Shown in pieces: positions 26,781 to 27,473 of a DNA stretch of 64,000 bases (positions are counted from its first letter, which is position 1; the number at the start of each line of letters is the position of its first letter). The notes under the pieces were generated by a model, which made no database searches, had not been told where the DNA came from, and saw only the letters and a list, made by a program, of their open reading frames with translations. The DNA lies in sequence record OK335775.1, one strand, 5' to 3'. Position numbers and translations under genes: made by a program. The stretch is from Escherichia phage PSD2002.

Positions 26781-27018
26781 ACAAACCGTTGAACAGAAAC
26801 TGCAGTCTGAAATCGTTATCCTGAAATCTCGTATCCTTGATACTCAGGACCATGCACAGCGTGTTAAAGCTGATTGTGATATGCTTACTAAAGTACTGGG
26901 TGAGATTGCTGCAGTAGTTGGCGTTACCGGTGATTCTGTTAAAATCGAAGACCTGGTTGAAGCCGTTAAAGCCCTGGTTCCAGAAGCTTCTGACGAAGAA
27001 TATTCTGAAGAAGAATAA
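26773..27018 (+). CDS. 57A: tail fibre assembly chaperone gp57A
   Basis: [26 protein letters not shown]... matches recalled T4 gp57A; 81 aa. Confidence 0.9.
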
Positions 27019-27473
27019 TGAAAACCGAAGATTTTGCTCAAGGTCTATACGTTGCTGCAAAATTCTCTGAATTAACTTTAGATGCGCTGGAAAACCTTCA
27101 GCGCACTTTAAAGGTTCCTAATCCAGTTCCTCGTGAAAAATTCCATTCTACAATCTGCTATTCAAGAGTCAACGTTCCATACACCGTTGCATCCGGAAGT
27201 TTTGAAGTTGCTTCGGCCGGACATCTTGAAGTATGGAAACACGGTGATTCTCCTGTCCTGGTCTTGGTTCTCAATTCAGAGTATCTTAAATGCCGCCATC
27301 AGTATGCTCGTACCTTAGGTGCTACGCACGATTTTGATGATTACACCCCTCATATCACCCTGTCTTATAATGTGGGACCACTTAGCTTTAGTGGAGATGT
27401 CCAGATTCCTGTTGTTTTAGACAGAGAATATAAAGAACCCTTGAAGCTCGACTGGGCTGAAGACCTAAAATAG
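27018..27473 (+). CDS. 57B: 57B-like 2H-phosphoesterase-type protein (T4 57B has been reported as anti-CBASS nuclease Acb1)
   Basis: 151 aa directly after 57A; two H-x-T/S motifs (HSTI, HITL) typical of 2H phosphoesterases. Confidence 0.7.

Follow-up and report, generated by a model that had tools for sequence, protein, structure and literature searches.

The window analysed here, a 64,000-nucleotide stretch of DNA from Escherichia phage PSD2002 (OK335775.1), contains on its plus strand (27018..27473) an uninterrupted open reading frame (ORF) of 151 codons ended by a TAG stop, which is the orthologue of gene 57B of phage T4 and is designated acb1 hereafter. As stated in the original prediction, this gene directly follows 57A: the 57A orthologue (26773..27018, +), coding for a tail-fibre assembly chaperone of 81 aa (Pfam GP57, E=1.8e-28), lies immediately upstream and is itself preceded by the orthologue of gene 1 (26022..26780, +), coding for a dNMP kinase of 252 aa (Pfam DNMK, E=2.8e-90). 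The gene order 3, 1, 57A, 57B, internal proteins is common to the window, T4, RB32 and QL01. The 57A TAA stop codon and the acb1 ATG share a single A, last in the former and first in the latter (...GAATAATGAAA...), an overlap of 1 base (TAATG), whereas 57A and 57B of T4 overlap by 4 bases according to their record coordinates. The downstream neighbours also differ, as ipI follows 57B in T4 while the window carries a rare 109-aa internal-protein ORF, ip109 (27481..27810, +), separated from the acb1 stop codon by 7 nt.

The DNA around acb1 is 97-98% identical to that of Escherichia phages QL01, LHE83 and IME540, the first of which is classified as Straboviridae, Tevenvirinae, Dhakavirus. When a 25-kb stretch of the window was compared with the collection, LHE83 matched at 97.5% identity across 72% of it, and 80% coverage was attained by none of the records. 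Based on these identities, on the taxonomy of QL01 and on the partial coverage by any record, the window therefore belongs to a T-even phage of enterobacteria of the JS98/QL01 (Dhakavirus) type and has certain variable cassettes peculiar to itself.

A profile search with the translated 57B ORF returned Pfam PF23474 (Acb1) with E=1.2e-58 and a score of 197.4 bits (cut-off 27). The match is full-length, profile positions 1-144 of 144 aligning with residues 8-149 of the ORF. Among all sequences of solved structures, the best match was the Acb1 chain of Erwinia phage FBB1 in the crystal structures 7T26/7T27 (E=1.7e-58), for which ORF residues 9-148 aligned with chain positions 2-142 at 65% identity and with a single one-residue gap. 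The alignment with T4 57B/Acb1 (NP_049750.1) is gap-free, with 128 of the 151 residues identical (85%), which together with the T4 gene order confirms the ORF as a 57B orthologue. Homologues were retrieved from 1,470 phage records. The 57B proteins of Dhakavirus are essentially the same as that of the window: the translation in the Salmonella phage SHP1 record is 100% identical, and that of QL01 (YP_009202875.1) differs at one of 151 positions (A67S). The window acb1 is consequently an already known gene at a known place, with nothing new about it. A single-sequence AlphaFold2 model of the ORF, made without an alignment, had a mean pLDDT of 34.7 and a pTM of 0.26, too low to be informative; from the 65% identity over 140 residues, it can safely be inferred that the window protein adopts the fold of the solved chain 7T26_A.

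The catalytic tetrad of Acb1 consists of the HxT/HxT residues H44, T46, H113 and T115 (PMC9117128). Four aromatic residues of the enzyme (Y12, W74, F107 and W147) stack on the bases of the ligand, E141 contacts the adenine N6, and residues 145-152 form a C-terminal lid closing over the bound ligand (PMC9117128). Since T4 Acb1 starts with MM, i.e., has one extra N-terminal methionine, residue numbers in the window protein equal the T4 numbers minus one. The two motifs HSTI and HITL on which the original prediction relied are both present, as H43-S44-T45-I46 (bases 27144-27155) and H112-I113-T114-L115 (bases 27351-27362), each of the H-x-T form. Aligned with T4 Acb1, the first motif (H43-S44-T45, 27144..27152, +) corresponds to T4 H44/T46 and the second (H112-I113-T114, 27351..27359, +) to T4 H113/T115, so that the columns of both catalytic histidines coincide, with no misalignment. 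Only these two of the six histidines of the window protein are followed by x-T. H-x-T/S tripeptides alone are weak evidence, and it is the full-length PF23474 match, the match to the solved chain and the pattern of substitutions that raise the two motifs beyond chance.

All nine published catalytic or nucleotide-contacting residues are kept in the window protein (Y11, H43, T45, W73, F106, H112, T114, E140 and W146). To the window, T4 and FBB1 proteins were added five distant homologues (32-45% identity), from Acinetobacter phage Morttis, Aeromonas phage 50AhydR13PP, Vibrio phage VS2, Escherichia phage RB16 and Salicola phage SCTP-2. In this eight-sequence alignment (32-85% identity), H43, T45, H112, T114, Y11 and E140 are invariant and are among 15 invariant columns in all. 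The C-terminal segment comprising residues 144-151 (27447..27470, +), including W146 (W147 of T4), aligns with the published lid residues 145-152 and is the same as in T4 apart from E148 in place of D; by analogy with those lid residues, it would close over the ligand in the window protein as well.

Compared to T4 Acb1, the window protein has the same tetrad and ligand-contact residues, and the final 50 residues differ by one D/E change. The 23 substitutions between the two proteins lie in clusters (residues 2-8, 56-58 and 75-80) that are separate from the residues of published function. As a lesser possibility, these differences (23 of 151 positions) might shift the kinetics or substrate preference of the enzyme, though none of them falls at a named functional residue. 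FBB1 Acb1, solved in the apo form (7T26) and with 3'3'-cGAMP (7T27), shares with the window protein both HxT motifs, the tyrosine, the glutamate and the C-terminal tryptophan, but has a phenylalanine at the position of window W73 (T4 W74), a tyrosine at that of F106 (T4 F107) and one additional residue following the beta-hairpin (window residue ~79).

T4 57B was found as a 3'3'-cGAMP-degrading enzyme by activity-guided fractionation and was named Acb1 (Hobbs et al., Nature 2022, PMC9117128). The same study assayed the lysate of T4 delta-acb1 for 3'3'-cGAMP cleavage, solved the ligand-bound FBB1 orthologue, and took the catalytically inactive H44A/H113A proteins as controls (PMC9117128). Cleavage of 3'3'-cGAMP and cAAA was observed for each of nine other acb1 genes that were cloned (PMC9117128), so the activity is general in the Acb1 family, for which Hobbs et al. 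listed 273 members (PMC9117128). By homology to the T4 and FBB1 enzymes, the chemistry, substrate range and phenotype of the window protein would be the following. Made during infection, the protein would act as a small metal-independent 2H phosphoesterase, the U-shaped pocket of which would take cyclic di- and trinucleotides with at least one adenosine, e.g., 3'3'-cGAMP, cUA, cAAA and cAAG. Y11, W73, F106 and W146 would stack on the bases, E140 would read the adenine N6 and the C-terminal lid would shut over the ligand. H43/T45 and H112/T114 would then provide acid-base catalysis for the attack of the adenosine 2'-OH on the 3'-5' bond, which would linearise the signal through a 2',3'-cyclic phosphate intermediate. 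With its signal linearised, the CBASS effector would stay off and abortive infection would be avoided.

The original prediction had proposed a 2H phosphoesterase acting as an Acb1-like anti-CBASS nuclease, and the full-length PF23474 match, together with the coincidence of the HxT columns with those of T4 Acb1, agrees with this reading. We are highly confident that the 57B ORF encodes an intact Acb1, the anti-CBASS 2H phosphoesterase of T-even phages, its chemistry, substrates and phenotype being predicted by homology.

Public records mostly describe this gene in other terms. The Acb1 gene is named 'RNA ligase' in RefSeq-style records, such as those of T4 (NC_000866, T4p137), QL01 (AVT32_gp143) and others, while most GenBank submissions list it as a 'hypothetical protein'. 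Taken at face value, the first of these names would make 57B a LigT-like (2'-5' RNA ligase-type) enzyme that ligates or repairs RNA, working on broken tRNA or RNA ends instead of immune signals. Such a function would be in line with the description of PHROG 755 ('RNA ligase'), with the same product name in RefSeq for T4, QL01 and others, and with a faint match of the ORF to Pfam 2_5_RNA_ligase2, LigT-type enzymes and Acb1 being both members of the 2H phosphoesterase superfamily. Like Acb1, LigT / 2'-5' RNA ligases (PF13563) possess two H-x-T/S motifs and carry out metal-independent 2',3'-cyclic phosphate chemistry. However, the match of the ORF to 2_5_RNA_ligase2 (PF13563) stays below threshold, with 13.9 bits for a cut-off of 27 and E=0.056, and covers residues 68-122 only, whereas the same ORF reaches 197 bits with the Acb1 model, in a full-length match. 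Acb1 differs from the LigT type by an aromatic cage, an adenine-reading glutamate and a C-terminal lid of its own (PMC9117128), and the 57B ORF keeps every contact residue that is specific to the binding of cyclic oligonucleotides. Moreover, it is as a 3'3'-cGAMP-degrading activity that the T4 orthologue was isolated (PMC9117128). We therefore consider a role in RNA ligation or repair extremely unlikely, and the 'RNA ligase' label, which reflects superfamily resemblance only and a sub-threshold PF13563 fragment, was rejected. The label looks like a superfamily-level annotation transfer dating from before 2022. Acb1 itself was found, solved and genetically tested in 2022; a Pfam family is devoted to it, and the same sequence is already public, so that the window gene offers little general novelty. 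What the labels 'RNA ligase' and 'hypothetical protein' do illustrate, the RefSeq entry of T4 included, is that automated annotation would hide a characterised anti-defence gene.

The Acb1 reading was complemented by an estimate of the selection acting on the gene. The window acb1 and its T4 counterpart share 71.5% nucleotide identity and 85% protein identity. Nei-Gojobori counting between the two gave a saturated pS of 0.77 and a pN of 0.14; raw proportions are given for this pair because a pS above 0.75 is beyond the Jukes-Cantor dS. Compared to QL01, the dN/dS is 0.07. These values indicate that acb1 is under strong purifying selection. Phage Bas43 carries a nonsense allele of acb1 (PMC13577387), unlike the window, in which the gene is intact.

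The position of acb1 was examined for what it may tell of its expression. The one-base overlap of stop and start codons suggests that 57A and acb1 may be translationally coupled, and acb1 is probably co-transcribed with 57A. The first terminator-like hairpin followed by a T-run downstream of acb1 (27819..27838, +), a pattern match only from a consensus scan, comes just after the 109-aa ORF. Consequently, the transcription unit plausibly runs ...1-57A-acb1-ip109, as judged from pattern matches only. The T4 late-promoter consensus (TATAAATA) was found directly upstream of neither 57A nor acb1, the nearest plus-strand match being at 24043. Since its 9 matches across the window are close to the 8.0 expected by chance and none lies directly upstream, the timing of acb1 expression cannot be read from this consensus. 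A scan for sigma-70-type promoters around acb1 was uninformative as well (17 sites vs 10.9 ± 3.5 expected).

The same overlap with 57A, along with an adjacency that is kept in all T-even genomes examined, could also be read as a sign that 57B is an accessory factor assisting 57A in tail-fibre assembly. We give this next to no credence: the 57B ORF resembles no chaperone family but matches an enzyme family along its full length, with an active site that is both intact and invariant, while a shared transcript would explain the adjacency to 57A equally well and the name 57B is positional. An anti-CBASS Acb1 that probably shares a transcript with 57A is the reading retained here.

The original prediction had further guessed that one of the small ORFs in the vs.3-vs.8 slot (41319-42101) encodes the signal sponge Acb2. 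This guess is borne out and can be narrowed to the last of the three ORFs (41823..42101, +), an orthologue of vs.4 whose 92-aa product is assigned as a cyclic-oligonucleotide sponge on the basis of PDB 7UQ2 and Pfam PF24729. Its residues 1-92 align with positions 2-89 of the 7UQ2_A chain ('Vs.4') with E=3.6e-28, and the match to PF24729 (Acb2_Tad1_hairpin) has E=4.2e-15 and 56.1 bits (cut-off 27). The other two ORFs of 41319-42101 had no Pfam match. Relative to T4 Vs.4, the first ~36 and last ~18 residues of this Acb2 are nearly identical, and the middle (about 37-75) has diverged and exceeds its T4 counterpart by a few residues.

The presence of Acb2 bears on the target of Acb1. With CBASS dinucleotide signals already covered by the sponge, the main value of the Acb1-type nuclease might lie elsewhere than in CBASS, against other systems relying on cA3 or cyclic dinucleotides (e.g., cA3-signalling type III CRISPR). 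Acb1 indeed degrades cA3 in vitro (PMC9117128, PMC13577387), and type III CRISPR and Panoptes decoy systems also use cA3 (PMC13577387). The in vivo Acb1 phenotypes described in the cited papers are nevertheless restricted to CBASS evasion (PMC9117128) and to sensitisation to Panoptes, a liability (PMC13577387). Nothing in the window tells CBASS from other targets, and this alternative differs from the CBASS reading in target, not in mechanism; we hold it to be very unlikely. Evasion of CBASS is thus kept as the predicted function of Acb1, and a phage encoding both a degrader (Acb1) and a sponge (Acb2) should evade many CBASS systems. Panoptes guard systems fire on cyclic-nucleotide depletion, and depletors expose the phages that carry them (PMC13577387, PMC12657218). 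Because such guards fire upon depletion, a phage with Acb1 and Acb2 should be vulnerable to Panoptes-type guards, which is of relevance for the prediction of host range and the choice of therapeutic phages.

Beyond these two proteins, the original prediction had gathered the internal proteins, a macro-domain protein and NudE into a sizeable anti-defence toolkit. This view holds for Acb1 and Acb2; for the rest it is conjectural, and as a whole it was overstated. The internal proteins of T-even phages have in common the leader MK(T/S)Y(N/Q/K)EF. Six plus-strand ORFs of the window begin in this manner, at 27481, 27926, 28152, 30400, 39061 and 39542. Only one internal protein, IPI of T4, is known to have an anti-restriction role. 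The internal-protein ORFs of the window were considered as possible orthologues of T4 IPI (GmrSD inhibitor) and rejected, for BLASTP revealed that they share only the first 7-12 residues with it (E values of at least 0.13). None of the six resembles T4 IPI beyond the N-terminal targeting peptide of ~10 residues.

The first of these ORFs, ip109, has the leader MKTYNEFV..., which resembles the capsid-targeting peptide of internal proteins, and matches PHROG 7857 ('internal virion protein'). Of 50,697 phage records, no more than 8 contain a relative; they come from Escherichia phage E33 (99%) and from phages of Enterobacter, Citrobacter, Providencia and Morganella. The ORF is absent from QL01 and LHE83, whose genomes are in other respects the nearest. 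In the four records with PHROG/RefSeq-style annotation, the ip109 match also touches the gene labelled 'RNA ligase' (57B). T4 acb1 adjoins ipI, whose product inhibits the restriction enzyme GmrSD, an arrangement that was likened to an anti-defence island (PMC9117128). By analogy with ipI, ip109 might encode a virion-injected inhibitor of host defence and make up a small anti-defence island with acb1, albeit we find this doubtful.

A perfect 32-nt direct repeat (TAGCCGTGATACTATAGCCCTATCAAAACAAA) occurs at 27874-27905 and 28442-28473 and brackets the Ip8-like (27926-28150) and Ip9-like (28152-28424) genes; its second copy is located within a promoter-like TTTACA-17-TACTAT site. Likewise, an analogous 43-bp direct repeat flanks the Ip7/Ip9 pair in the RB32 record. 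Together, the two repeats suggest that cassettes at the internal-protein locus may be exchanged through repeat-mediated events. Further downstream, the ORF at 30400-30864 (154 aa, PHROG 2280, unknown function) has a match to the late-promoter consensus upstream, at 30366-30373.

The two other proteins named in the proposed toolkit do exist, as their Pfam Macro and NUDIX matches attest, but an anti-defence role for either is conjectural. The macro-domain protein (44255..44722, +), of 155 aa, matches Pfam Macro with 33.8 bits (cut-off 22) and is assigned to PHROG 335 ('phosphatase'). Its best relatives of solved structure are uncharacterised bacterial macrodomains (2AFC, 2FG1), ADP-ribose-1''-phosphate phosphatases and a chain named 'RNase III inhibitor' (5M3I), and any role of this protein against host defence is only a guess. 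The Nudix hydrolase (37995..38549, +; Pfam NUDIX, E=7.5e-15; PHROG 1185) starts as a mechanically called ORF at a TTG (37995), its likely start being the ATG at 38100 (MSKKVKEL...). Its gene is found just upstream of the lysozyme gene (38580-39074), a position matching that of nudE (e.1) on the T4 map.

Other features of the window were recorded along the way. An ORF of 248 aa (42631..43377, +) lies between regB (42165-42623) and a 173-aa ORF, the latter possibly lytic-transglycosylase-like. The 248-aa ORF (42631-43377) had no Pfam match at E<=0.01 but contains an HNH-like stretch (...EKHHIIPSCVGGPDTQDNLVELYADEHYLAH...), and it may represent a homing endonuclease insertion. Only two tRNA genes (Met-CAT and Arg-TCT) are found, at 29798-29954 (+), whereas T4 has eight tRNAs and two small stable RNAs in the same slot. 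Finally, the e.x gene block includes a gene (35273..36295, +) coding for a 340-aa protein in which a DUF7277 domain is followed by a DUF7275 domain (E=1e-26 and 2.1e-77, respectively).
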